64,000 bases of DNA from Patescibacteria group bacterium (lineage in GTDB: Bacteria > Patescibacteriota > Microgenomatia > UBA8517): contig DATDRP010000003.1 in the NCBI GenBank assembly GCA_035291665.1, positions 84,549 through 148,548 on the forward strand. Reading direction: 5' to 3'. A program made the position numbers and the translations under genes. The notes under the pieces are model-generated. The model was not told the DNA's origin. It worked only from the letters and a program-made list of their open reading frames with translations, and made no database searches. Positions 1-62,797 of this stretch are shown one piece after another (position 1 is the stretch's first letter; every line of letters starts with the position of its first letter).

Positions 1-123
1 CCTTAATTCCTGTATTCCTAATATCCTACCCCCTACAATCTACTGCCTATTTCTTATATCTTTTCCCTCATATTTGTAGCCAAATTCGTTTTAATTCGTA
101 GCTAATTAGTAGCTACTTGTAGT

Positions 124-1161
124 TTAAAGTTTGCTGAATTTCCTATTGAGTAGTAGGCCAAAAATAGCCAGGGGTATCGTTATCAAAACCAACGAATATG
201 AGCTGTCAAAAATTCCCGTTGCCGGAAGCGCCGAAACCGTTGCTGTTGGGAAAACGGTTGGTCCCGCTCCGCCTCCTATATCACGAAGTTCGCCTCCAAC
301 CGTGACTTTCTTTTTGCAGGCATCTGCCGTAAGAAGACTTCCCTTGCTGTCCTTGACTGTGAGAATTGCTGTATAGGTTCCGGGTGTTTTGTACTCATAA
401 CTTATAAAATATTCTTCAGTTGTTATCACAGAATTAGATACTGTTCGGTCACCTGTATCGATTCTGTATTCCTGAATGGTTCCGTAAGGATCGTATCCGG
501 CAGCGGTAAAATCCACAGTCAAAGGTGCTTCCCCGCTTACAGGATTTACGATCAATTCCTCACAGCTGGATTTGTATAAACTTGCATATAACGAAGGCGT
601 TGGTGATCCGCCCGTTGTTCCTGTTGGACGGGTTGATGTTCCGGTTGGACCGGTTGAACCCGTCGACGCCGAGGAGAGTTTGATCCATTCAGCCTTAATT
701 GCCGCACTCTGAATACTCTCAAAATATTCAAGTACAACCAAATGCGTACCCGGAGTAATTCTACGGATAGCTTTGAACGTGGCATAATGCTGGCCTTTCC
801 AAGAATCGATTATCTTGTTTCCGTCAATGTAAAGCCTTACTCCATCATCCGAGCGGACTGTAAATTGATAATCCGCATCTTCAAAAATAAAATTACCCTG
901 CCATCTGATGGAAAAATTGTCAGCATAAATTGCAGGGTCAGGCGATCCCCATCCCCATCCAAAACTTATCTCTGGAGTCTCCCTAGTAAATGCTAGGGTC
1001 TCAAAATTCCTTCCGTTATAGTAACTACCCAAAAATTTACCGGTTGGAATTGCTTGAGCCTGAACAGATGTAACTCCGGCTAATAGTTGTATAAATAATA
1101 TTGAAGTTGACAGTAAACTCAGAACTTTTTTCATATTTAAGTTTAACAAACTAACAAACAT
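124..1161 (-). CDS. Secreted cell-surface protein: signal peptide, PA14 domain, PKD-like domain, Pro/Thr/Gly linker, C-terminal LPATG + hydrophobic helix + basic tail (sortase-type anchor)
   Basis: PA14 hallmark stretch YYNGRNFETLAFT...IRWQGNFIFEDADYQFTVRSDDGVRLYIDGNKIIDSW; PKD-like LTVDFTAAGYDP...TYTAILTVKD; C-terminal LPATG-IFDSSYSLVLITIPLAIFGLLL-NRKFSKL; N-terminal hydrophobic signal. Confidence 0.6.
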   Translation of the reverse strand: MFVSLLNLNMKKVLSLLSTSILFIQLLAGVTSVQAQAIPTGKFLGSYYNGRNFETLAFTRETPEISFGWGWGSPDPAIYADNFSIRWQGNFIFEDADYQFTVRSDDGVRLYIDGNKIIDSWKGQHYATFKAIRRITPGTHLVVLEYFESIQSAAIKAEWIKLSSASTGSTGPTGTSTRPTGTTGGSPTPSLYASLYKSSCEELIVNPVSGEAPLTVDFTAAGYDPYGTIQEYRIDTGDRTVSNSVITTEEYFISYEYKTPGTYTAILTVKDSKGSLLTADACKKKVTVGGELRDIGGGAGPTVFPTATVSALPATGIFDSSYSLVLITIPLAIFGLLLNRKFSKL

Positions 1162-1183
1162 TTAAATTCTTATATCCTCCCGC

Positions 1184-1222
1184 ACTTCTACTCTTCTACT
1201 CTTCTACTCTTCTACTCTTCTA
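1184..1222. repeat. Tandem octamer microsatellite (CTTCTACT)x4.5 just upstream of the PA14 protein start
   Basis: Direct reading: cttctactcttctactcttctactcttctactct. Confidence 0.85.
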
Positions 1223-1810
1223 CTCTATTTTAGTATACAAAAAAATCGACCCATTTGTCTTGCTTCCTCAAGGAACAGGTAGAGCGCCTGCCCAACACTC
1301 CACCTGTCCCCTCAAGAAACAAGGCTATTTTGAGTCGATTTAGCTTCTCAAAACGGACTTGATTTTTTAAAAAAAAGTTTTACGCTTTTTATTAAGCGCT
1401 TACAAAAATTAGCGCTTACCTTTAACTTATCTTGCGACAAGCCTGTCCTGCAAGATAATTAAGAAACTTAAAGAGCATTGCTACTCGTGTTTATTCCCCT
1501 TACCCGGGAACATCGATGGTGATGCTCTTTATTTGTTGCTGGCCTCTCTTTAATACAAACAGCCAGCAATCCTCCGGCAATCGCACCTCGAGGCATATTC
1601 GAATAGAATCCAAAGCCGAGTGGTAAGATGCGGAGGATTCACCTCCATGTCATTTTTAAAGTTCTTACACTTGATATTTTACTATGTAGGGAGGTAATGT
1701 CAAATCCCATAATGTATTATTAATTAATTTGTCGCTTTCCTATAGTTTTCGAGTATTGATAAACCGCCTTAATCTTCGCCTATTCTATGGAGAAAAATAT
1801 AAATGTGGAT

Positions 1811-6304: not shown

Positions 6305-7417
6305 TTATTTATATCCCACCGGCTTAGCGGTAAGTACCATACCTAAGGACATTTTCTTATTTTCCGCATCAATATCTTCTACGATTATATTAACCTTATC
6401 ACCTTCTGACAAACTCGTTCCCGGAGGAATCTTCGTGATGTGAATAAGGCCTTCAATACCCTCTTCCAACTTAATAAACATGCCAAAATCCGTCCTGCGG
6501 ACGACTGTCCCCTGGTGTTTGGAATCTTTTACATATTTCGCTCCGGCTTTTTTCCATGGGTCATCTTTTGCCTGTTTCATCGAAAGAGATAGTTTTCCGT
6601 CACTTACTCCCAGCACCTTGACCTTAATCACATCTCCTTCGAATACAATATCCCTGACGCTTTGGACTTTGCTCCATGATAACTCCGATATGTGAACCAA
6701 ACCTTCAACTTTGACTTTTTGCTTTGCATCGATATCGACTTCGACTTCAACAAAGCATCCGAAATTTGCGATTTGCATTACCCGTCCGTCATAAACATCT
6801 CCATCTTTGATCATTTCGAGTGCCTTTCTGATTAGTTTAATATCTTCCGCGTCCGATACCTCTTTCTCGGAAAAAACTATTTTGTTGTCCGATCTGTCCA
6901 AATCTATAACCAATACTTTAAGCGGTCTTCCGACCAGTGAACCCGGATTTTTGATTGAAGACTTGCCAATTTGAGTTGTTGGAATAAATCCATGCACTCC
7001 TTCAAAATCCACATTTAAACCTGCTCCTGAAGCTGATTTGGGTAAAACAAACAACGGTTTTCGATTTTTGAAAGCATCTTTCAAAACCAGCCACACAGAA
7101 TCCTGCATAGCCTGGCGAAGCGAAAGAATAGTTAATCCATCAGGTGTTTCTCCAACAATAATAGTCGCCTCAACCGTATCTCCAACTTTGAGGTTTTTGA
7201 TGTAGTCGCGTGCTTCCTGGAATGCCTTTTCGGCAACAATTCCTTCCCCTTTTCCTCCAATATCCAAAACCAGTCTTTTATTTTCTTTGACAATTACGGT
7301 ACCGGTCACCTTCTCACCACGAATAAGAGTCCGCTTTTTATTTCCATACATTGCAAGAACTTCCTCCATTGAGGATGGGGCTTTTTTAGATTTTGTTGAA
7401 GTTTTCGGTTCGTCCAC
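6305..7417 (-). CDS. rpsA: 30S ribosomal protein S1 (short form, ~4 S1 domains)
   Basis: Repeated S1-domain signatures (GxV, FGxFV, GLxHISE...). Confidence 0.85.
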   Translation of the reverse strand: MDEPKTSTKSKKAPSSMEEVLAMYGNKKRTLIRGEKVTGTVIVKENKRLVLDIGGKGEGIVAEKAFQEARDYIKNLKVGDTVEATIIVGETPDGLTILSLRQAMQDSVWLVLKDAFKNRKPLFVLPKSASGAGLNVDFEGVHGFIPTTQIGKSSIKNPGSLVGRPLKVLVIDLDRSDNKIVFSEKEVSDAEDIKLIRKALEMIKDGDVYDGRVMQIANFGCFVEVEVDIDAKQKVKVEGLVHISELSWSKVQSVRDIVFEGDVIKVKVLGVSDGKLSLSMKQAKDDPWKKAGAKYVKDSKHQGTVVRRTDFGMFIKLEEGIEGLIHITKIPPGTSLSEGDKVNIIVEDIDAENKKMSLGMVLTAKPVGYK

Positions 7418-7479
7418 TCACAACAACCACCTTTCTGTATTTAACGGTCAAATTATATCCTATATATGGAGTGAAAACA

Positions 7480-7750
7480 AGACAGGATAAGTACTGGTAT
7501 AAGTTTAAGTCTATGAAATCGGTTGTAGGAAATGGGAAATGAGTTGTGAGTGGTGGGAACTGGAAAATGGAGATAAGTAAGTAGGTTGTAGGGGGTAGGA
7601 TGTTAGGAATAAAGGAATTAAGTAATTTAGTAAATTAGAGAAAAGTAGTAAGTTGTAAGAGGTAAGTTGTAGGTTGTAGGAGGTAGAAAATGGGAAATGA
7701 GTAATGGGAAGTGGGATGTGAGTAGTGAGTGATGGGTAATTAGTCTAAAG
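7480..7750. repeat. C-depleted (plus strand) / G-depleted (minus strand) low-complexity tract with GTAGGTTGTAGG-type motifs, upstream of rpsA on its coding strand
   Basis: ~270 nt almost devoid of C; motif GTTGTAGGTTGTAGGAGGTAG recurs. Confidence 0.8.
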
Positions 7751-7900
7751 TTTTTAGTCTTGAGTATTGAGTTTTAAGTTGAAGGCGTTGCCCTGACGGC
7801 TTGACCGCCATGCTTAGGCAAAACGTTTGCAGGAGGGTGACGTATTTTCAAGACATTTATATCGCAATCTCATCCGACGCGCACGCACACTGTTATCCGC

Positions 7901-8302: not shown

Positions 8303-8422
8303 GTCCTGGCGATGACGTATTTTCGCATACAGTTACCCGCATACTATCGTCTGCGCTACCCCGTTTCACAACTCTGTTCGGAATGGGAAGAAGTGGTACC
8401 AGGGCGCTCTGATCACCAGGAC
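8303..8422 (-). rRNA. rrf: 5S rRNA
   Basis: Reverse complement reads GUCCUGGUGAUCAGAGCGCCCUGGUACCACUUCUUCCCAUUCCGAACAGAGUUGUGAAAC...; CCGAAC..GUGAAAC loop C signature; terminal helix GUCCUGG/CCAGGAC. Confidence 0.75.
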
Positions 8423-8530
8423 AATATCTTCAAAATTGATAATTGTCCATTCAAACCATTTTAAATGTTAAATTGCAACTTTTTATTGCTCTTTATAAAT
8501 TCAAGGAGAAAGGACGACTCTCGTGCTTAG

Positions 8531-8669
8531 CGCGAGAATTTCTAATTTACAATTTAAAATTTCTATTGAATTTCAAATGACTTAATGTACTTAATTAAAA
8601 AATTGGGTCAATGAAAATTGAATAAAAGTTAAAAACTACATAACTAAAAATTCTTGTGCTATGCACAAG
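8531..8669. repeat. AT-rich ~140-nt repeat family, copy 1 (3' trailer of 23S); begins GCGCGAGAAT, ends in hairpin CTTGTGC-N3-GCACAAG
   Basis: Near-identical copies at 8531-8669, 11201-11340, 12953-13090; a related AT-rich insert sits in the 16S (27885-28010). Confidence 0.8.
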
Positions 8670-8790
8670 AGAAAAATGTCTTATTGACTGATTCGGTTAA
8701 GGTTAGCTTAACTCCTTACGGAGCTTCCACATCCTTCCGAACAACCTGGTATTCTTCCAGGAGTCTATAATGAACCCTAATCTTGGAGGG

Positions 8791-8823
<33 letters not shown>

Positions 8824-8954
8824 CTTAGGAATATAGCTACCCGGCTTTGCGGCTGACGCCACAACCGGCACACCAGAGATTCCTCCAGCCTGGTCCTCTC
8901 GTACTGAGGCCAGCTCTCCTCAAGGTTCTACGATTCCACCGGATAGAGTCCGAC

Positions 8955-9342
8955 ATATAGTATGTCAATACTTCGCATGTTTTTATTTCCGAACGATTTT
9001 TCGGAACTCACGATCGCTCGTGAGATCAGACTATATCTTGTACGTTCAGTTTAAATGAACGTACTCTGACGTATAGTCGTTGAGGATTCTACGTTCAGTT
9101 TAAATGAACGTAGCCTTTCCTGCTGATTGTCCGCACCTGTTGCTTTTTTACCCTGAACGACCAATATAAGTCGAACGGGTAGCACAGGATACAACGGAGT
9201 TCCCAGCAAATAGTCAAATTTATACTCGACTGGTCGAGTCCTATAATGATAACAGTTCTCTTTACTGATTGTTCAAATCAGAAGGTTCAAAAACGTGTTA
9301 TAGGAAGACAGCTCATGTCATTCCGATATGTTATCGAAATCA
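8955..9342 (-). mobile_element. ~390-nt ORF-less insertion at the 23S L2593-equivalent site (GACAGU|UCGG); candidate group I intron
   Basis: Flanking exon sequences align to E. coli 2585-2600 with ~390 extra nt between; 5' exon ends in U and the insert ends in G; contains modular hairpins (ACGTTCAGTTTAAATGAACGT twice). Confidence 0.45.
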
Positions 9343-9862
9343 ACTGTCTTACGACGTTCTGAACCCAGCTCACGTACCGCTTTAATGGGCGAACAGACCA
9401 ACCCTTGGCACCTTCTTCAGCGCCAGGATGCGATGAGCCGACATCGAGGTAGCGATCCGCGCCGTCGCTATGGACGCTCGGGCGCGACTACTCTGTTATC
9501 CCCGGGGTAGCTTTTATCCGTTAAGCTCCGTGCCTACCATGAGGCAATCGGAGGATCACTAAAACCTGCTTTCGCACTAGTTCGAGCCGTCGCTCTCACT
9601 ATCAAGCTGGCTTCTGCTTTTGCACATTGAAGTACGATGTCCATCCGTACTAAGCCAACCTTTGTGCCCTTGCGTTACTCTTTGGCAAGGTACCGCCCCA
9701 GTAAAACTGCCCACCTGACACTTTTCCTTCCGCCGTATCCAGGCGGAATAGGTAAGCCTCACATTTTCAAAAGAGTGGTATTACACTGTTCCCCGCAAAA
9801 TAAATCTGCGGGGTCCCACCTATTCTACACAATTCAAAAATATGAAAAGCAATGTCAAGCTG

Positions 9863-9893
<31 letters not shown>

Positions 9894-10025
9894 GTGGAAT
9901 TAGGCCGCGTCTTCACAGCCACCGCAATTTCGCCGAGTAGAGGCTCGAGACAGTTATTAACTCGTGACGCCGTTCATGCAGGTCGGAACTTACCCGACAA
10001 GGGGCTTCGCTCAAAACCTTATGAA

Positions 10026-10705
10026 AATCATCGTTGAGTTTTGGACTATATCTTCTCCGATTTGATCGGAGTTCGACGTATAGTCTCTGAGGATTCTAAA
10101 ACAGACTGGTTTCTTTTTTTTCTTGTATTCATTGTCTCGATAATATTGATAATTTTATTTATTCCATTTTTTGTTAAATGAGTTTTATTTTTCATTAACA
10201 AAAGTATTTTAGAAAATTTACTGAAATCATCTTTTTTAGAAGTTTTCAACTTATTTTCCTCAAAAAAAGGAATAATTATATCAAAAAGTTCCTTCTGAGA
10301 CTTCACACAATATCGAAAAAGATCTTCTCTGTGATTATCGTGTCTTCTGTTGACCGAAATTCTACCACATTTAAAAAATTTCATTACCGTAAATAATACG
10401 TTCTTACTTTTTTCTCCTTGCGATAAAACAAACTCGGGCATAATCTGATAACCCAGAGATGTAGTTGGATTCTTATGTAGGGTTACTGTAAAACAACCCT
10501 CTCCGTCTACAAATCCAACAATCCAGCCAATAAATTTTAGTCTTTCCTGCTGATTATCTTTACTGAATGCTTTTTCACTTGGTATCATCTACAGTATGAT
10601 GTTACCTTAGTAGCTTCAGATTAACAAGATTTTCCAGCATATAGTCGAATTTTACTACGGCAGTTTTGTATTGCCCTTACCGTAGAACAGTTATAGTTAC
10701 TGCTG
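10026..10705 (-). mobile_element. Group I intron at the 23S L1917-equivalent site carrying a LAGLIDADG homing endonuclease ORF
   Basis: Exon junction ...CUAUAACUGUUCUA | intron | AAGGUUUUGAGCGAAGCCCCUUGUCGGG corresponds to E. coli CCUA|AGGUAGCGAAAUUCCUUGUCGGG; ORF inside on the same strand. Confidence 0.7.
10046..10588 (-). CDS. LAGLIDADG-family homing endonuclease (single-motif type)
   Basis: IGWIVGFVDGEGCF matches the LAGLIDADG motif; located inside the rRNA intron. Confidence 0.85.
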   Translation of the reverse strand: MIPSEKAFSKDNQQERLKFIGWIVGFVDGEGCFTVTLHKNPTTSLGYQIMPEFVLSQGEKSKNVLFTVMKFFKCGRISVNRRHDNHREDLFRYCVKSQKELFDIIIPFFEENKLKTSKKDDFSKFSKILLLMKNKTHLTKNGINKIINIIETMNTRKKRNQSVLESSETIRRTPIKSEKI

Positions 10706-11200
10706 CCGTTTACCGGAGCTTTGCTTCACCCCATAAGATATCGCTTGCGCGATACCAAACAGGGATCCGTTTAACTTACCGGCACTGGGCAGGCGTCAGC
10801 CCGTATACTTCGCTTTTCAGCTTTGCACGGACCTGTGTTTTTGATAAACAGTCGGTTAATAAACTTTCGCTGCAACCCCGATTAAATCGGGGCAACCCAT
10901 CTCCCTAAGTTACGGGTAGTTTTTTTGCCGAATTCCTTAAGCCTCTTTCTCTCGCTCGCCTTACTATACTCTAGTAACCCACCTGTGTTGGTTTTGGTAC
11001 GGCTTACCTTGAATCTCACTGCGAATCTTTTCTCGTAGACAGAAATGTATGGAATAGTCCAAGTAAACTTAAACTCTGCATAACTCATCGATTAATCGTT
11101 TCAGCGGATTTCCCAACTGATACTATCTATAAGCTTGCACCCCACTTCACGAAGGGGCTCCAATTTTCCTATCCAGTCAATCCCCAGTTACTCATACGCT

Positions 11201-11340
11201 GCGCGAGAATTTTTAATTTACAATTTAAAATTTATATTGAATTTCTAATGACTTAATGTACTTAATTAAAAAATCGGGTCAATGAAAATTGAATAAAAAT
11301 TAAAAACTACATAACTAAAAATTCTTGTGCAACGTACAAG
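11201..11340. repeat. AT-rich repeat family copy 2, inside the 23S (E. coli ~1500 region)
   Basis: Aligned to copies 1 and 3; terminal hairpin CTTGTGCAACGTACAAG. Confidence 0.8.
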
Positions 11341-11707
11341 TTTGGCGATTCAAGACAAATACAGGAATTTTAACCTGTCATCCATCGACTACCCCCGCCC
11401 CTTTTTTGACAATAGCTTACGGAAATTTCATCTTTGGAAGGCGAAACGCCTCAAATTGTGTTGAGCCGTTTTCGGCTTCCGGGGTACGAAAATCCATTAA
11501 ACATTATCGAAAAAGGGGCGGGGCTTGCCTTAGGTGCCGACTAACCCGTCGAGGACGAACCTCGCGACGGAATCCTTGGGTATTTGGCGGACCAGATTCT
11601 CACTGGTCTAGTGCGCTACTCATACCGGCATTCTCACTCCCATTCGCTCCACCCAACTTTACAGTTGAACTTCACAGCAAATGGAACGCTCCCCTACCAC
11701 ACTCGCT

Positions 11708-11872
11708 CGCAGTTCGAGAAAATTCAAATGATAAATATCAAATGACAAATCAATCACAAATAACAAAACTTTAAAAGAGAAAATAATTTAAATTCTTTTG
11801 TCCTCTTTTTAATTTTGAGTTTGAATTGAATTTTGTGATTTGAGTTTTGAATTTCCTTGTACTGCGAACAAG
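11708..11872. repeat. Hairpin intervening-sequence family copy a, at 23S helix 45 (GCAGUACAAGG...CGAACUGCG arms)
   Basis: ~165-nt long inverted repeat inserted where E. coli has helix 45 (GCGGCAGCGACGC...); near-identical copy at 12499-12663. Confidence 0.75.
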
Positions 11873-11936
11873 CATCTCTGGCTTCGGTATTATCTTTAAT
11901 CCTCGATTAATTTTCGGCGCCTACTTCCATCGACCA

Positions 11937-11993
<57 letters not shown>

Positions 11994-12498
11994 TTATGGA
12001 AATAAACTTCCTTTGAAACTTAAGATAAATTTAGAGACCTTAGCCGAAAGTCTGGGTTGTTTCCCTTTACCCGCATCAGCTTAGCCCGATGCGAGTGTCT
12101 AGCGTGATAATGTACACCGTTATTCGGAGTTTGGTTGAGTGAACTTGGTTGCCCTCGTCCACCCATTCAGTAGCTCTACCATCGGTAACACCTTACACGC
12201 CACGGTCCCTATAGACCTTTCGGGGAGAACCAGCTATCTCCAGGTTCGTTTGGCATATTACCCCTATCCACAAGTCATCCCAAGTCATTGCAACGACAAC
12301 GGGTTCGGGCCTCCTCCCGACTTTCGTCGGGATTCACCCTGCTCATGGCTAGATCACCTGGTTTCGGGTCTTATCTCACATTCAAAATCGCGCTATTAAC
12401 ACTTGGTTTCCCTACGCCTCCCCCCGCAAAGCGGGGTTAGACAAGAATATAAGATAAACTCGCCGGTTCATTCTTCAATAGGCACGATATCACTCGCA

Positions 12499-12663
12499 CG
12501 CAGTTCGAGAAAATTCAAATGATAAATATCAAATGACAAATCAATCACAAATAACAAAACTTTAAAAGAGAAAATAATTTAAATTCTTTTGTCCTCTTTG
12601 TAATTTTGAGTTTGAATTGAATTTTGTGATTTGAGTTTTGAATTTCCTTGTACTACGTACAAG
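12499..12663. repeat. Hairpin intervening-sequence family copy b, at 23S helix 25
   Basis: Inserted after GAACCUGAAAC...CUUGUACGUAGUACAAGG, the helix-25 position; ~95% identical to copy a. Confidence 0.75.
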
Positions 12664-12728
12664 CTCTATCGGTTTGTCCGCAAACAGTTTCAGGTTCTAT
12701 TTCACTGGGCGTCCCGCCCTTCTTTTCG

Positions 12729-12760
<32 letters not shown>

Positions 12761-12952
12761 TTCTGCTTATATTTAGCCTTGGAAGATGGTTCTCCCAGAT
12801 TCCCACGAAGATGTCGATCGTGGTACTTAGGAAATCCCTAGAGTCATTTTTCATTTCGTATACAAGACTATCACTTTCTATGGTCGGCAATTCCATGCCG
12901 TTCTACTATGAAAAATGATCCCACATTGGGCTCCTGCAACCCCCTGCACTCT

Positions 12953-13090
12953 GCGCGAGAATTTCTAATTTACAATTTAAAATTTCTAATTAATTTCTAA
13001 TGACTTAATGTACTTAATAAAAAATCGGGTCAATGAAAATTGAATAAAAATTAAAAACTACATAACTAAAAATTCTTGTGCAAAGCACAA
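12953..13090. repeat. AT-rich repeat family copy 3, inside 23S domain I (after GUAGCGGCGAGCGAA)
   Basis: Aligned to copies 1 and 2. Confidence 0.8.
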
Positions 13091-13101
13091 GGTTTAGGCT
13101 T

Positions 13102-13132
<31 letters not shown>

Positions 13133-13810
13133 ATTTCCCCCGCTGAGCGGGGGTTGTTTTCTTTTCCTTCGGGTACTTAGATGTTTCAGTTTCCCGAGTC
13201 TCCTCCGAAAGAGCTATGTGCTTCGCACAAGGTGGCCTACAGCTATTTGACTACAGACTACAGGAAAAACTGTGACTGTAGACTGTTGACTGTAAGCAAA
13301 CTTATGCGAAGCGCTTTTACTCTTTGGTCCTCCGTTATGAGACGGAGTGGGTTTCCCCATTCGGACACCGCCGGGTCACAGGATCGTGGCTCCTATCCGA
13401 CGATTATCGCAGCCTTGCGCGTCCTTCTTAGGTAAGCAAAACCAAGGCATCCACTGTTCGCGTTAGTAAAGACATTTACCTCGTGTATAAACACGAGGAT
13501 TTTGGCCTTTCTCCTTAAATTTTTAAAGAGCAAATTAACTTGTTAATTTGCGATGTATCCGCCAACAAACGCCCCTTAAGTCGTGTTCGAACAGAACTAA
13601 AAGACTTAAGGTAAGTTGCGGCGGAAAAGAGCACTGTTTCAAAAAAGAAACAGCTTCTATCTCTCGCAAATCTGTTAATGTTCATCTCTTTAGTATCTGA
13701 AAGATGGTGACTCGCGGTTTAAAATATTATCCAAACCGCCAATCACCATTTCTCAAATGTCAAAGTCTTCCTTATACTCTTCTACTCTCACGCTCTTACA
13801 CTCTAAATTA

Positions 13811-13883
13811 AGTGGACCTGGGCGGGGTCGAACCGCCTACCTCGTCATTGCAAATGACGCGTTCAGCCAGTTAAACTTCAGGC
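13811..13883 (-). tRNA. tRNA-Ala (anticodon UGC) with G3:U70
   Basis: Reverse complement GGGCCUG...CAUUUGCAAUG...GGUUCGACCCCGCC...CAGGUCC-A; anticodon loop UUUGCAA; G3·U70 identity pair. Confidence 0.85.
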
Positions 13884-15479: not shown

Positions 15480-15650
15480 ACAACTAAAAACTTAAGGCTA
15501 ATTACACCCACTACTCACTTCTCACTACCCACATCTCACTACTCATTTCCTATCTCTTACCGCCTACATCCTACAATCAATCGCCTACTCCCACTTCCCA
15601 CTACTCACTTCTCATTACTTAATATCTTAAAATCCTTCATATATAATGAA
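15480..15650. repeat. G-depleted low-complexity tract (CTACTCAC / CCTACAAC motifs) upstream of the ATPase gene
   Basis: 170 nt with essentially no G on the plus strand. Confidence 0.8.
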
Positions 15651-15653
15651 GTT

Positions 15654-17771
15654 ATGCTTAAAACATTTGTTTTGAAAGTTCCAAGAGAGAATGTCGAAAC
15701 CCCCGAAGCAACACAAACTTTTTTATCAGCGCTTACCACGCTTAATCCGACAAGTACTCTTGAAAAATTACTTATAAAAAACCAAAAAGCTCTTGCTCTC
15801 GAAATTGTGCTTCAAAACCAGCAAATTACATTCAGGGTGGTTTGTGATTCTGAATTTGAACATCTGGTTACCACACAAATCCAGTCAAACTATCCGCTTT
15901 GTGTCATTCAGAATGCTGAAAATGAAATTTCCTTTGAAGACCTGACTCTGACAAAGGTTAACTTGAGGTTTGGTAATTTTTACCCGATTCAAACTTATGC
16001 TTCTTTCCGGGATTTGGATCCAATGTCGTCATTTTTATCGCTTCTTTCAAAGGCAACACCGAATGACGTCGTAATCATTCAATACGCTCTTGAGGCAGCT
16101 GGATCTTCCTGGCAGGCGAAAGGTAAAAACTTTGCTCTTTCAGGAGCCAAAAAAGCTGATGGGTCATTTGGTCCCAGACCCGACCAAAATGTCGTTAACG
16201 AAAAGATATCATTCCAAGGATTCAAAGTATCCATTCGGATAGCATCTAATTCGAAAACAACTCAAAAAGAACTTGCATCCGTGTATGATATTTTTAACCG
16301 CCCCGACGGCAATAGTTTTCGATCTTCATCCGTCATCAGGCTTTTTTTCAAAAAAGAAATGGCAAAATTCAAGAACCGGCTTTGCAGTGATTCTCAAATC
16401 CTTAACACTCCGGAGTTGGCAACGCTATGGCACTTGCCCGGTGAAAAAATAAAAGCCCCCTTAATTTCCTGGGGTTCAACAGTTTTATCAGAACCACCGG
16501 AAAATCTTCCGGTTGCAAAAATCATGTCCGATGAAGAAAAATCCCATGTCAACTTTTTTGCAAAAACACAGTTTAAGAATGAAGAGAGCATTTTCGGAAT
16601 CAAAGACAAGGATAGGCTTCGTCATGTCTGGACTGTCGGAAAAACCGGAACCGGAAAATCAACAATGATTGCCAACATGGCAATCGATGACATAAAAAAA
16701 GGGCGTGGAGTTGCGGTTATTGATCCGCACGGAGATCTTTGTGATGACATACTGGATTACATTCCCAGCTCCCGTATAAATGACACAATTTATTTCAATC
16801 CGGCTGACCGCGAATTTCCAATCGCACTCAATCCTCTTGAAGTAACAAATAAAGAAGAGGCGGAATTGGTTGTATCCGGACTGATGAGTATCTTTACCCG
16901 AGTATGGGCTAATGTTTGGTCTGCAAGAATGGAATATATTCTCCGTAACTCATTCATGACTTTGGCAGAAATCCCCGACTCGACGTTGGAGGACGTACTC
17001 CACTTGTTGGCGAATCAGACTTTCCGAAACAGAGTTCTTTCAAAAGTAAAAGACGACGCTATCGTAAAATTCTGGAAAGACGAGTTCGATCAAATGCCGG
17101 AAACATTACAAAAAGAAGCGATTGCACCAATCCAAAATAAAGTCGGACAATTTGTAACATCGCCTTTAATGAGAAGAATCCTTTCAAAACCAAAGTCCGC
17201 CATTTCGATTGACGACATCATGAATAACGGAAAAATATTTTTGGCCAATCTTTCCCAAGGCCGTCTCGGTGAAGACAACTCGGCGCTTCTGGGTGCAACA
17301 CTTATCACAAAAATTCAAGTTTCCGCAATGAGACGTGTGGACATTCCGAAAGATGACCGCCGGCCGTTTTACTTGTACGTTGATGAGTTTCAGAACTTCG
17401 CCACCGATTCATTCATCCGAATTCTATCAGAAGCAAGAAAATACGGATTGGCTCTGACTTTGGCTAATCAATATATGGCGCAAATTCCTCCCAACATACA
17501 AAAAGCAATTCTCGGAAACGCGGGAACTCTGGTTGCTTTCACAATCGGCGCAGAAGATGCCCAAATTGTACATCGGGAATTTGCCGAGGTGTTTTCGCAA
17601 AACGATTTGGTTAATTTGAAAAACTATCAAATTGCAGTGAAACTAATGGTCGATGCCCATTCAACCAGGCCCTTCTTTGCCTATACATTGCCTCTTCCCG
17701 CGCAGAGTAACCAAAACCGCCCCAAAGTGATTGCAGTTTCCCGGGAAAGGTGGGGAAAAAAATCGACGTAA
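15654..17771 (+). CDS. P-loop NTPase of the HerA/FtsK/VirB4 clade (DUF87-like), 705 aa, with ~300-aa N-terminal domain of unknown function
   Basis: VGKTGTGKST Walker A; AVIDPHGD (HerA/VirB4-like); LYVDEFQNF Walker B; no SD upstream. Confidence 0.6.
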   Translation: MLKTFVLKVPRENVETPEATQTFLSALTTLNPTSTLEKLLIKNQKALALEIVLQNQQITFRVVCDSEFEHLVTTQIQSNYPLCVIQNAENEISFEDLTLTKVNLRFGNFYPIQTYASFRDLDPMSSFLSLLSKATPNDVVIIQYALEAAGSSWQAKGKNFALSGAKKADGSFGPRPDQNVVNEKISFQGFKVSIRIASNSKTTQKELASVYDIFNRPDGNSFRSSSVIRLFFKKEMAKFKNRLCSDSQILNTPELATLWHLPGEKIKAPLISWGSTVLSEPPENLPVAKIMSDEEKSHVNFFAKTQFKNEESIFGIKDKDRLRHVWTVGKTGTGKSTMIANMAIDDIKKGRGVAVIDPHGDLCDDILDYIPSSRINDTIYFNPADREFPIALNPLEVTNKEEAELVVSGLMSIFTRVWANVWSARMEYILRNSFMTLAEIPDSTLEDVLHLLANQTFRNRVLSKVKDDAIVKFWKDEFDQMPETLQKEAIAPIQNKVGQFVTSPLMRRILSKPKSAISIDDIMNNGKIFLANLSQGRLGEDNSALLGATLITKIQVSAMRRVDIPKDDRRPFYLYVDEFQNFATDSFIRILSEARKYGLALTLANQYMAQIPPNIQKAILGNAGTLVAFTIGAEDAQIVHREFAEVFSQNDLVNLKNYQIAVKLMVDAHSTRPFFAYTLPLPAQSNQNRPKVIAVSRERWGKKST

Positions 17772-17779
17772 GTTGATTT

Positions 17780-17930
17780 TTTTGATAAAAGTACATATTT
17801 CTCTATTTTCTTTATTCTAAACTACTTAATTACTTAAACCCCGTATTTCCCAATACTCACATCCCACTTCCCACAACTCAATTTCTATCTCTTACCCTAC
17901 AACCTACTTCTTACAACCTAACATCGTTTT
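17780..17930. repeat. G-depleted low-complexity tract (CCCTACAACCTAC motifs) followed by its C-depleted mirror at 17990-18050
   Basis: Composition and motif reading. Confidence 0.8.
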
Positions 17931-18046
17931 CACCGGTACATTTAGACCTATAATAACGAACACTATTCTCCCCCATTAGCTTGTGAAAAGAATGTGAAAG
18001 ATGAATAGTTGTAGGTTGTACGATGTAGGAGGTAGGATAAGATATA

Positions 18047-18400
18047 GTGAGAATTACAAAACTTGATGATTTGGTTATATATCAGGAGTCAATCTTACTT
18101 ACTAAGGAAGTATTTACACTTTGTAAATGTCCCAAGCTCAAGACTGAATATAGCCTCCAAGATCAAATAAAACGAGCGTGCGTTTCTGTGTCTGCCAATA
18201 TTGCTGAAGGCTACGGTAGACGTACCAAGGCCGACTTTTCTCAGTTCTTATCAATCTCGCTAGGCTCATGCAATGAAGCGATAGCCTTACTGGACGTCAT
18301 TAAATTAAATTTTCCCACACTGGAAACTACAGAGCTAAAAGGAAAATATCAGATATTAAGTAAAAGGATTTATTCATTCCGCAGTTATCAAATTAAATAA
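18047..18400 (+). CDS. Four-helix-bundle protein of the type normally encoded inside 23S rRNA intervening sequences (TIGR02436-like)
   Basis: Matches this family's typical motifs: ...ACVSVSANIAEGYGRRTKADFSQFLSISLGSCNEAIALL...; 117 aa. Confidence 0.7.
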   Translation: MRITKLDDLVIYQESILLTKEVFTLCKCPKLKTEYSLQDQIKRACVSVSANIAEGYGRRTKADFSQFLSISLGSCNEAIALLDVIKLNFPTLETTELKGKYQILSKRIYSFRSYQIK

Positions 18401-18440
18401 ATATTTTCCACCTACAACTTACAACTTACTTCTTACCGCC

Positions 18441-18474
18441 ATGTCAAGTTTTTTGAACACAAAAAACTTGACAT
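18441..18474. promoter_or_regulatory. Perfect 14-bp-arm palindrome ATGTCAAGTTTTTT-GAACAC-AAAAAACTTGACAT overlapping the -35 of the promoter below (candidate operator)
   Basis: Direct reading. Confidence 0.6.
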
Positions 18475-18917: not shown

Positions 18918-20553
18918 TGCCGGGAGACGAGTAAAGATTGAAGAACATTTTCGCGATTAGTGAAAGGTAGCCAGTTGACCGCCTTGAGCGGATTTCAACT
19001 TGCTGCCTTCCACTGGTCACGAGGACCAGTGTCTTTTGTTTAAGACGAGGGGAAGCAGGAAGTAAGCAGTAAGAAGTAAGGAATAAGCAATAGCGCATAT
19101 CACCTACAACCTACCGCTTACGACTTACAACCCATTTGTTCTTTAACAACTTTGCTGTTTACCACGTTCAATTTATTTGAGCGTGGATATAATTAAGGAA
19201 AAAGGAACCCTATTATATTTTTTCGATCGCGAGGACTACGGTTCTCGCGTCACGGAAGTAGTATAACGGGGTAAGAAAAGGGAATCCGCAATATCTTAAA
19301 TAATAAGGTATGTGCGGGATACCGGGGTTAGATAGTTTTTTAAAAAGACTTCTAACAGGACATGGGGTTAAATGATATATATAGATAGTCTCCTTTTTTC
19401 AAATGTCCCCTATTAATGGAGGGAACAGAGACCGTAATTATTTGCGGTTTCTTTTCCCTTCATTTTTTTGGGGCTAAAGTCCTTGGAGTTTTTTTGTTTT
19501 GGTTTAAGGCTTCGCCTTAGGCCACGTTTTTTGAATGCTGAAACATGCGATATAGTCGATTGAAGACTACGGTCTTTGTCGATACAAAAATATCAAAATG
19601 TTTTACCAGCTGTAATTCTAAATCCTTAAAAATTTAGAAGTTGGATAACCTTCAAAAAACAAAAACGAAAACAGAACCAATATGAAATTTATATTGGCGA
19701 AGTCCCGTACCGAATTTATTCTGGTGCGTGGAAAAACTTCAAAAGATTGCATCGCAAAGGATTATTATCCTGAGCGAAGACAAGTTTGACTTGTTGCAGT
19801 CGAAGGACTTCCTTTATTTCGGTTAGCCTGCTTTGCGAGCACTTCTCCTTTAAAAAGAGATTTATCAACTGAAACCAAAGGCACCCAGGATGGCGATAAA
19901 ATTCCTACTTGTAGAAGTTCGCACCCGCTTCGCGACACGCATTTCCGAGTTCTTTTCTTCCGTAAACCCGAGAAGAATCGAAATCTTATGCGCGATAAGA
20001 AGAAAAAGTAAATCGAGCAATCGATTAAAAGGCCTTCTTTTTATGACAAGGAAAACTGCGGGGGTATAAGACCTATCAAAATCTTATATTCAATCCGTAC
20101 CAGTCATTTGGGATTGTGACCCAACAAGGCAACAACTCAGGGATCAATCGCAACCAAGCTCAGCTTGGTAATCCTGTTTTGTATCAAAACCACTACGGTT
20201 AGATACGAAGAGATCTCGCATTTATACATGTTAAATGTGTAGAAATCGGGAAAAGCGAAAATCCAGCTCAGCTGGAGTACTTATCTTAAGTACGCGGAAA
20301 CTGGACAAGCGTTTTTTGTTTTTGCTTTGAAGAGACTTCTTCTTTTCTTCTTTATAAACAGAGAGTTTCCGGTGCACCCAACAAAGGTGTCATCCGCAAG
20401 CTACGAAGCTTGATTATAGAAACTGATATGTAGGATATCGGAGAGAAAGAAAAGAATTGGAGAAGTAGGAACGGAAGACGGCATTCAGGAGATGCGGAAA
20501 AATTTTATCAATCAGGTGTAGTTTTACCTGAATTCAGAAAAAAGGAGAATGTT

Positions 20554-23125: not shown

Positions 23126-24905
23126 GCGGGATCCTCCCCTCTCCCTTTCCTTCTTTCTTTCCTTAGGGATCAGATAATCACGTAAATTATTATTTATTAA
23201 AAAAACGTGATTGGACAAGAACAGTAAATTTTTATCAACTGTTACTTACCTACTCAGCTACGGCTGAATAATTTGATTTTTTCCATGAGCAAGTCTTGTG
23301 GAAAATATAATTTCGACACTCTGTAGTTTCGTGCTACGGAAACGATTTTATGCCCAACGGATTGAAAGTTGGAAAGGTTGAGAGTGGGAGGACCTGCGGG
23401 TTCGTACCAATATTTCTTAAACCAGATACCATTCGGTACCTGGCTACTTTTTCCTAATTCCCTCCAGTGCATATTCTTGCACGGAGTAAACCCCTTATTC
23501 GAGTCAAACTCGAGGAATCAACCTGATTACCGGTTGATAAGGGAAGGTTTATTCAAGTTCAACTTGAATAAACATAGACTTTCTTCCGCGGAAGAAGTTT
23601 GGAGAGCCATTGGCCCTTCAGATCACTCTTTCCGGATGAAAGCAGCAATAAAAAGGTATTGTGTGGAAATTTTGGGAAACCAAAATTTCAGATTCTGAAT
23701 TTATTCAGGATGACAAACACACAACAACCTTCTCTACTTTTTTTAATTTTGTCTACGGACAATATTAAAAAATCCCAAAAGGAATTTAACCGAAAGGTTA
23801 AATGTAGAGAAAAAGCGATAAGACTTATGCAAATTCTGCATAAGTCTTTGAAGTCAGGTGCCATATGGTACCTGACAGGTGATTTAGTTGTTGTTTTTGA
23901 GCATGGTGATTGAATCTCCAAAGAGATTCTTTCATTAAATCGAGTCCAACTTGATACCGCCCAAATAACAAATAAACTTTAATCACATTCAGATATCCTC
24001 GTGGTATCTGATCCCCCTTCGCTCTTACGAGCTACGAAGGGAAAAAACGTTTCCCATCCTCCTTCGTTCTGCACAGCAGAACTTTGGAAGGATACAATCG
24101 GCAACAACTTGCCGGTAGCAAATATTAAGCAATTGCTACATGGCGGGTTGCGCCATAGGGTATAACGAAGGGGCCTACTAGTTTGGTTTTTTCAAGATGG
24201 AGTGCCAAAGCTGGCGCTCAATATGACACCCGAGTAAGACTCGGACACAATCATACACATCTCGAAAAACAAATAAACTAGCAGGCCCCAAAAACAAAAA
24301 AACTTACAAGGCAAGTTAGAGAATGGAGAAAAGAGAAGAGTTCAAAGTTAGTATTAAATTGGTAGATAGTAGATTGTAGATCTTATATGGGGATAAAAAT
24401 CCTTCCCTATATTTCATATACCGTATGCTATAAACCAATTGTGTTACTTATTAGTCAGCAAAGTTCTTTAAAAATTTATTATTTAGTACAAAGCGAAAAG
24501 CGAAGAGAAAAAAGTTTTTAAGAAGTTAGTTTGAAACGCTTAATTCTTTATTCTATATACTAATTATAGTGTTCGAAAGCGTGGGGGTTAATCCCGTTAA
24601 TAAACCTCTAAAGCAACCACCCAGCTCAGCTGGGTAGGTAGGAAATTTTCGGTTCTCCCGGGGAATATCCAGGAAAGCCAAAATTTGAGATTGCCCCCAC
24701 ACTTTTGAACATAAAAATAGTGATTAGTGCAATGCTTGCAAGGACTGTCCTTGTACGCTGTGTATAGTAATTACTCATAACTCACCACTCATAACACACT
24801 TCTTATAACTTATCCCTCACCCCTACAACCAATCGCTTATTTCATATTGTTTTCGACAAAGAGTCTCCCAGTCACAAACCCGGAATTCATAATTAATCCC
24901 ATGAC

Positions 24906-27181: not shown

Positions 27182-28822
<1,641 letters not shown>

Positions 28823-29112
28823 GTGACGGTTCTAATTAATAAAAATTAGATCCATCTAATCACTCCCAGTCATATTTTAATTTTCGAATCAGTTGTTAAA
28901 GTGCGAGATCTTAACAAACAAAAGAAGCCGCCCAGACGGCGGCTTTGTAGCCTTAAAGATTAATCTTCGTCTGGTCAACCGCTTCTCATCTTTTCCTTTC
29001 ACAAACCAACAAATTGATTTGTAATGTGTATTATATCAAATTTTGCAAATTGTTCAACGAATCGGTTTGTGGGATTGGAAATGAACCGGGGGTATGTTAA
29101 CATTGCGCCGCT

Positions 29113-31919: not shown

Positions 31920-32110
31920 TTCAATTATTAATTTAAGCGAACTGTATTTTATCAAAAATTATGTTTCTTTACTATTTTCCGATTTCTCTCATATCATCCG
32001 CTTTTCTCTTTTTGCTTTTCGCTTTCTAATCCTATATTCAATATTTAATCTTCTTCACTCCCCGTTTCTTATCCTATCTACCATATACTAAACTCCATAT
32101 ACCAACCATG
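31920..32110. repeat. ~190-nt G-depleted pyrimidine-rich tract upstream of tRNA-Glu
   Basis: Almost no G on the plus strand; CT-rich motifs (ttctctcatatcatccgcttttctc...). Confidence 0.75.
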
Positions 32111-32205
32111 TCCCGCTCTTCAACGCCCTCCCGATGAAAATTGATCAGGACTCGAAGTACCATGTCTAAACAATATTGCTTATAACGTTACAAAATTTCT
32201 CCGAA

Positions 32206-62412: not shown

Positions 62413-62693
62413 TCTTCTGTATACCAACGTCCCTTTATATACCGACGCTTGTCTGGTGTTTCGATTTTCTTTGTTTCTGTCACTTCATTCGCTTGTCTTT
62501 GAGTCTGATCTGCCAACGTATCCCCCCGCCGACCTTGCCTTTGAGGAGTCTTTCTCGATCCGTCCGGATTTAGATGTCTAGTATTAATATCGTTGTCGTT
62601 TCTTTGGGTTACAACCACTCCTACTAACGGTAATGCAAATTCGAATTGCCTGGCTGCCTCATCCGAAGACTTTTTATTTGCTTTTGATTCCAT
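62409..62693 (-). CDS. Hypothetical basic/charged protein (94 aa)
   Basis: ORF only. Confidence 0.3.
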   Translation of the reverse strand: MESKANKKSSDEAARQFEFALPLVGVVVTQRNDNDINTRHLNPDGSRKTPQRQGRRGDTLADQTQRQANEVTETKKIETPDKRRYIKGRWYTED

Positions 62694-62797
62694 AATAGGT
62701 CCTATTTTACCCCCCTAACTCAACTTTTTCCACCCTATTCGCAAGTTTAACTGCCTAAATTTGGATCATTCTAAAAGTTATATAATATGATTTAGCT

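Follow-up and report, generated by a model that had tools for sequence, protein, structure and literature searches.

G-free intergenic tracts of a 1.1-Mb Patescibacteria genome as a probable satellite-like family of degenerate heptanucleotide arrays

Introduction

Heptamer repeats are over-represented in bacterial genomes, and polymerase slippage has been proposed as the cause (PMC4692102, PMC4679880). The STRR sequences of heterocystous cyanobacteria (Calothrix, Nostoc) are heptanucleotide repeats (cited in PMC4692102 and PMC4679880), while the GGGAATC repeats of Xanthomonas and the GGGGAYT repeats of Nostoc PCC 7120 form G-quadruplexes (PMC4692102). TAACTGA direct repeats have been described in marine Beggiatoaceae, cyanobacteria and Bacteroidetes, mostly as 2–6 exact copies that lie directly upstream of start codons in forward orientation (PMC4679880). 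A 7-bp unit can also be read by a protein: the omega protein of pSM19035, a ParB protein with a ribbon-helix-helix fold, binds WATCACW heptads, needs at least four of them in contiguous array and has sites that overlap promoters (PMC9499535). These parS/operator sites are carried by a plasmid together with their cognate protein and comprise 7–10 heptads in mixed direct and inverted orientation. Perfect ATCTTTC repeats occur in the promoters of Haemophilus influenzae hmw1A and hmw2A, with reported phase-variation control of hmw1A (PMC8262952). Our literature search returned no paper linking heptamer repeats to Patescibacteria.

Here, we describe strand-asymmetric tracts that lack G almost entirely on one strand in the genome of a Patescibacteria group bacterium (assembly of 1.1 Mb, 97% completeness). 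The tracts were followed across the assembly and in one window, by which we mean the whole stretch of 64,000 nucleotides analysed (positions 84,549–148,548 of contig DATDRP010000003.1, hereafter C3); coordinates without a contig name refer to this window. The arrays belong to a known class, the intergenic heptanucleotide long simple-sequence repeats of the STRR type, and are unusually abundant and degenerate here, with a lag-7 identity of 0.41–0.57 in the window that falls short of the near-perfect units of a strict simple-sequence repeat.

The likeness to STRR sequences lies in the tandem 7-nt units, the mostly intergenic location, the many dispersed arrays per genome, the mixing of different heptamers within an array, the patchy phylogenetic distribution and the lack of an established function. 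The arrays described here differ from them in being degenerate (lag-7 identity 0.5–0.65), in using three letters per strand and an xCxxAxx frame, and in residing in a 1.1-Mb Patescibacteria genome. With the GGGAATC and GGGGAYT repeats they share the character of strand-asymmetric G-rich/C-rich intergenic heptamers, and may also be likened to them in that length and sequence vary at the same site between relatives; in contrast to those repeats, they contain no canonical G4 motif (loops of 1–7 nt). Four motifs with loops of up to 12 nt were found inside the arrays, and G-quadruplexes were rejected as a general property. Like the TAACTGA repeats, they are intergenic heptamer direct repeats common to distant lineages with no known transfer mechanism, but they extend over 50–300 nt, are degenerate and are randomly oriented relative to genes. 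The omega sites resemble them in their contiguous 7-bp units, in the placement of arrays beside promoters and in sequence, CTCACW being one position off WATCACW; they differ in that the present arrays contain as many as about 45 unidirectional heptads, occupy dozens of sites on the chromosome, have a consensus C rather than A at position 2 and come with no identified cognate protein. The ATCTTTC repeats are likewise a G-free heptanucleotide repeat upstream of a gene, whereas the repeats studied here have diverged too far to slip frequently and show no link with gene starts.

Results

Arrays in the window

The strand-asymmetric base depletion and shared sequence vocabulary noted in the initial annotation are well illustrated by the largest array of the window (7461–7785), which consists of about 46 degenerate heptamers and has its G-free strand on the minus strand (eight C in 325 nt on the plus strand). 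Its lag-7 identity is 0.53 (z = 8.3), and BLAST finds 22 related segments elsewhere in the genome. The array lies between the 5S rRNA region and the gene for ribosomal protein S1. Its upstream neighbour is the 5S rRNA gene (8304–8420, minus strand; Rfam RF00001, 79.6 bits); downstream and outside the repeat lies rpsA (6305–7417, minus strand), the product of which contains three S1 domains (Pfam, E = 4e-31). At the left edge of the window, positions 1–97 (plus strand) form the end of an array situated between two minus-strand genes; this array starts before the window and measures about 200 nt as a whole (C3:84422–84623). It is 86% identical over 65 nt to part of the 7461–7785 array (BLAST).

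Several arrays accompany a group of accessory genes. The array at 15497–15647 (plus strand; three G in 151 nt; lag-7 identity 0.56, z = 6.5) stands directly before the gene for a TraG/HerA-like ATPase, and its direct-orientation partner at 17776–17934 (plus strand; four G in 159 nt) begins 5 nt past the stop codon of the same gene. A short array of opposite orientation, previously noted as a mirror (17981–18056, minus strand; one C in 76 nt on the plus strand; lag-7 identity 0.46), overlaps the start of the gene for a 23S-IVS-type protein, at the end of which lies a short CCTACAA-type array (18388–18442, plus strand; lag-7 identity 0.52). Farther downstream, an opposite-orientation heptamer array absent from the earlier list (24313–24396, minus strand; lag-7 identity 0.53) is followed by an ACTCAYA-type array (24763–24848, plus strand; two G in 86 nt; lag-7 identity 0.56) upstream of a 363-aa gene that gave no family match. 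A T-/C-rich array of CGCTTTT and related units (31945–32132, plus strand) is flanked by a tRNA gene and the 3' end of a minus-strand gene and is antisense to both.

The best period is 7 nt in nine of the tracts listed earlier and 8 nt in two. The first of these two (1142–1247, plus strand; lag-8 identity 0.64) is G-poor and encloses a perfect (CTTCTACT)5.2 at 1185–1226; the other, also G-poor and nearer to period 8 (13718–13811, plus strand), is flanked by a tRNA gene and the 5' end of the 23S rRNA gene, both on the minus strand. Most of the tracts in the initial list show the base depletion claimed for them. The tract at 62690–62760 is weak and, as delimited here (62700–62760), shows no periodicity. 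The short CCTACAA/CTTACGA heptamer run at 19090–19140 (plus strand; lag-7 identity 0.57) contains five G and so is not strictly G-free.

Abundance and unit structure

G-free or C-free runs of at least 60 nt occur in the assembly far above the expectation from base composition. Taking as asymmetric any tract with no more than one G and 13 or more C per 50 nt, or the mirror image of this, we count 254 in the 1.1-Mb assembly, compared with about 113 in third-order Markov simulations, and all tracts of at least 100 nt are intergenic. Short G-poor stretches within genes (antisense 128 versus 31) are a separate phenomenon, namely the ordinary purine bias of coding strands. Intergenic tracts of at least 80 nt have a lag-7 identity of 0.513, compared with 0.328 after shuffling (z = 26), and harmonics appear at lag 14 (z = 18), lag 21 (z = 15) and lag 28. 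A tandem-periodicity scan that is blind to composition detects 75 period-7 arrays (5.1 kb) and none in simulated sequence; the same scan yields 38, 34 and 18 arrays at periods 12, 8 and 6, respectively, and simulated sequence gives at most three at any period other than 7. Seven is thus the commonest tandem period in the genome. Of the 75 period-7 arrays, 54 are intergenic, compared with about 13–17% of the genome.

The units can be summarized as W-C-Y-H-A-Y-H, with ACTCACT, TCCCACT, TCCCATT, ACCTACA, ACTTACA and TCCAATT as examples. This pattern fits 22 of 52 array consensus units but only 9% of random heptamers, and four contiguous units of this kind match 72 times in the genome and never in simulations. 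Counted as single units, G-free heptamers exceed chance only about 1.6-fold; what stands out is that arrays remain G-free even when they are long and diverged.

The arrays are related to one another by descent of segments as well as by vocabulary. An all-against-all BLAST of 48 intergenic arrays gave 44 collinear matches of at least 40 nt, the longest being 92 nt at 89% identity, whereas controls in which the heptamers were shuffled inside each array gave 0–1. These matches join 18 arrays from contigs C1, C3, C4 and C6 into a single family. Among the gaps that separate paralogous arrays in alignment, 7 nt is the commonest length above 1 nt; multiples of 7 account for 13 of the 68 gaps. Inspection of the aligned copies revealed no consistent ends; the shared segments are internal and of variable extent. 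A 63-aa tatA-like gene, identified by eye from its translation (approximately C3:69790–69980, minus strand), is bracketed by same-orientation arrays of 303 and 285 nt (C3:69462–70337, about 14–15 kb before the window). The shared segments of these two arrays are 89–90% identical.

Folding and base constraint

The predicted folding energies of the two array strands are −0.002 and −0.051 kcal/mol per nt, compared with −0.167 for other intergenic DNA. The initial description of the tracts as unstructured therefore holds, with values of about 0 kcal/mol per nt on both strands. Its companion proposal, triplex or H-DNA, was rejected as unlikely because the G-free strand contains 28% A and hence is not homopyrimidine.

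Loss of one base goes further than neutral decay predicts. In arrays chosen by periodicity alone the rarer of G and C makes up 5.1%, against 10.4 ± 0.9% under a neutral model with a random founder unit and unconstrained substitution to matching divergence; none of 200 simulations was as low as 5.1%. Positions 2 (C) and 5 (A) of the unit are 82% conserved versus 53–67% at the other five (permutation p < 0.0002), a comparison with some circularity since the rotation used to phase the units favours C and A columns. These two results, together with the co-orientation of neighbouring arrays described below, are not fitted by a purely neutral model.

Orientation and genomic context

Relative to the genes around them, the arrays are randomly oriented. 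Among the 35 arrays of at least 70 nt, the G-free strand agrees with the strand of the upstream feature in 18 cases and opposes it in 17 (p = 1.0), and agrees with the downstream feature in 14 and opposes it in 21 (chance level), counts that carry some error as genes were called with a crude codon-usage ORF scorer supplemented by ARAGORN tRNAs and Rfam rRNAs. According to the initial annotation, G is usually missing from the strand that is sense for the downstream gene; about four of nine tracts fit this in the window, and the genome-wide 14 against 21 does not confirm it. With two gene sets, 25–27 of the 35 arrays lie between tandem genes, 6–8 between convergent genes and two between divergent genes, so that gene starts do not determine where arrays lie. 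Nor do the arrays play an orientation-dependent part in the expression of the neighbouring gene.

The arrays are also clustered. A 92-kb region (C3:26–118 kb) contains 18 of the 35 where 2.9 would be expected (p = 4e-11, for a region picked after viewing the data), and includes the split rRNA genes, the TraG/HerA-like ATPase gene and a gene for a PA14/PKD protein. Random orientation relative to genes and presence only in this accessory neighbourhood were the two observations that had been put forward as arguing against a leader function; the former is what the counts give, and, largely in line with the latter, the tracts are concentrated in one such neighbourhood.

Neighbouring arrays 150–4000 nt apart share their orientation in a ratio of 14:1, regardless of the strand of the one to four genes between them. 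Genes bracketed in this way by co-oriented arrays include tatA and those for the TraG/HerA-like ATPase, the 23S-IVS-type protein and the PA14/PKD protein, among others. Contig-scale GC skew does not explain the ratio. A replication-strand bias was considered and rejected: the GC skew of contig C3 is negative throughout, yet arrays occur on it in both orientations.

The rRNA genes themselves are split, the 5S and 23S genes (8304–13477, minus strand) being 13.7 kb from the 16S gene (27182–28823, minus strand). The interval contains plus-strand accessory genes, including those for the TraG/HerA-like ATPase and the 23S-IVS-type protein, and encodes a 747-aa protein that gave no family match.

Comparison with other genomes

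A period-7 G-free array is absent at the rpsA locus in 19 relatives (S1 protein 46–55% identical) and at the rho locus in 24, all from other genera, although the 5S–rpsA arrangement, with 5S rRNA-like sequence upstream, is kept in at least two of the array-less relatives. The position of the arrays at these loci is therefore not conserved, and the expectation that tracts might be conserved in position and not in sequence is rejected at both. Synteny of rho and rpsA holds in this family: the rho gene (C3:82078–83424) and rpsA lie 4–12 kb apart on the same strand here and in the five relatives with compared coordinates, and this conserved neighbourhood is a useful anchor for comparison.

Arrays of the same grammar occur at other sites in some relatives, where they measure 130–300 nt and include one perfect (CCTACAA)7 as well as ACTCACT runs. 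Of 401 genomes drawn from across the phylum, 98 contain the four-unit pattern; its count is highest in the present genome (72), followed by 38, 28 and 27. Homology of arrays across genera was tested by BLAST and rejected: the E-values were good, but the best score of 48.8 bits lies within the 37–51 bits of unit-shuffled controls. Judged from their sequences, the arrays of different genera share a unit grammar, not demonstrable descent. Arrays of this type are also found in many other phyla: when species genomes were searched for four CYCACWW units, the matches listed included members of Bacteroidota, Gemmatimonadota, Cyanobacteria, Campylobacterota, Planctomycetota and CPR, among them a Bacteroidales genome with a G-free degenerate array of 343 nt. 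A metagenome scan yielded a relative at 53% identity only.

Discussion

We consider, with moderate confidence, that the G-free tracts constitute a satellite-like family of decayed or degenerate tandem arrays, built of 7-nt units and, in a few modules, of 8-nt units. The units would have multiplied locally by replication slippage or unequal exchange. Ectopic recombination or gene conversion would then have carried segments of 40–90 nt from one intergenic site to another, as a rule close by and without change of orientation. Point mutation would erode the arrays, which would survive wherever the genome tolerates additional DNA, namely at gene ends and in the accessory region that surrounds the split rRNA genes. 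We infer that slippage and recombination generated the arrays and that inertness let them persist. Such inertness is likely, since neither strand is predicted to fold when one of them uses only A, C and T. The earlier suggestion that the tracts are products of a specific mutational process thus pointed in the right direction, in so far as they are heptamer arrays of the slippage type, slippage itself being presumed.

The results that the neutral model does not fit invite functional readings. Rather unlikely, in our judgement, is the reading in which a DNA-binding protein uses the arrays as binding tracks, occupying one heptad per dimer and polymerising along the units, so that the arrays would act, whatever their orientation, in nucleoid organisation, segregation or accessory-gene silencing. 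The contiguous 7-bp register with its preferential conservation of C2 and A5 speaks for such a track, with the circularity of the phasing to be set against it, and the CTCACW subset matches six of the seven positions of the omega site. The minimum of four contiguous heptads known for omega (PMC9499535) is present, as the 72 four-unit WCYHAYH matches attest; several arrays adjoin promoter-like −35 elements; random orientation to genes suits a role at the level of DNA; and the constraint against G exceeds the neutral model. Yet the omega family (PF07764) was not found, in a search in which the control genomes were silent too, and the arrays, of up to 300 nt and several unit subfamilies, have nearly all of their heptads in one orientation where omega sites are mixed. 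They are also absent at the rpsA and rho loci of related genera and from about three quarters of the sampled genomes of the phylum. A three-letter xCxxAxx heptad code, widespread in Patescibacteria and read by a small polymerising protein so as to mark or insulate cassettes or organise the chromosome, would, if true, account for why G is selected against, why two positions are conserved and why orientation is coherent locally; we regard it as quite improbable. The co-orientation of neighbours whatever the gene strand, the bracketing of tatA and of the genes for the TraG/HerA-like ATPase, the 23S-IVS-type protein and the PA14/PKD protein, the concentration of 18 of 35 arrays in one 92-kb accessory region and the segments shared by the arrays on either side of tatA (89–90% identical) would also be expected if the arrays were boundaries or landing pads of mobile gene cassettes, either because genes split pre-existing arrays or because direct arrays mediate excision or exchange. 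This is unlikely: inspection identified no terminal inverted repeats, target duplications or recombinase, and tatA is a housekeeping gene.

Readings that act through RNA fare worse. C-rich, G-free, unstructured RNA of at least 80 nt after a stop codon could recruit Rho, making the arrays Rho-loading (rut) sites or transcriptional insulators. Their composition is ideal for rut sites (31% C, 1.8% G, about 0 kcal/mol per nt), Rho is encoded in the genome, some arrays follow stop codons in gene orientation behind the repeat GATATTAR, and arrays are somewhat enriched between convergent genes. However, the sense strand of the upstream gene is matched in only 18 of 35 cases (p = 1.0), and half of the arrays would therefore be transcribed as G-rich RNA, which leaves this reading very unlikely. 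The initial annotation proposed unstructured pyrimidine-rich 5' leaders that would allow initiation independent of a Shine-Dalgarno sequence, a reading that is extremely improbable. It can draw on four cases in the window in which the strand lacking G is also sense for the gene that follows and on the TATAAT that stands 6 nt before the ATG of the TraG/HerA-like ATPase gene. Against it, orientation is random across the genome, and the 6–8 of 35 arrays between convergent genes have no start codon to serve. Promoter-like sites occur at or after the 3' ends of arrays: TTAATA-17-TATAAT at the end of 15497–15647 (15619–15647), a site at 17927–17954 at the 3' end of 17776–17934, and, in a relative, TTGACT-17-TATAAA sites at or just after the array 3' end. 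Visual reading of the sequence likewise places a putative promoter-like site, absent from the output of the scan tool, downstream of the tract before rpsA. Arrays so placed would therefore not be transcribed as leaders. Moreover, rpsA retains its own ordinary AAAGGTGG Shine-Dalgarno downstream of the 7461–7785 tract, and the tract is missing upstream of rpsA in the 19 relatives from other genera. The analysis thereby removes a tempting but wrong reading of the tracts as special translation leaders.

The satellite-like family has consequences beyond this locus. Streamlined genomes of 1 Mb can evidently also hold about 5 kb of satellite-like heptamer DNA, concentrated at accessory genes and the split rRNA operon. 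The depletion of G, the two conserved positions and the co-orientation of bracketing arrays offer handles on why 7-nt repeats are favoured and whether they are functional. In genomes of the candidate phyla radiation, such arrays are likely to be break points in short-read assemblies and sites of recombination.

Other sequence features

The C-free strand of the 7461–7785 array carries, at 7678–7704 (plus strand), AGGAGG followed after 6 nt by an ATG and a four-codon frame. Shine-Dalgarno-like sites of this sort recur as the complement of CCTCCTAC units and are probably meaningless. The TTAATA-17-TATAAT element preceding the TraG/HerA-like ATPase gene (15619–15656) ends 6 nt before the ATG and would give a leaderless or nearly leaderless mRNA. 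The 23S rRNA gene carries a group I intron (9007–9284).

Further short-period intergenic repeats fall outside the WCYHAYH pattern and are built of CACGAAT/TCGTATT or AATCAAA/CCAAATA units (for example, C3:37100–37260, C1:60–110 and C4:92930–93000). The 8-nt repeat (GATATTAR)2–4 occurs at 30 sites genome-wide, such as C3:80455–80474, C3:73221–73240 and C3:42082–42101. At least 13 of the 30 copies lie 4–39 nt past stop codons in gene orientation, and in seven or eight copies the repeat is followed by a G-free heptamer array.
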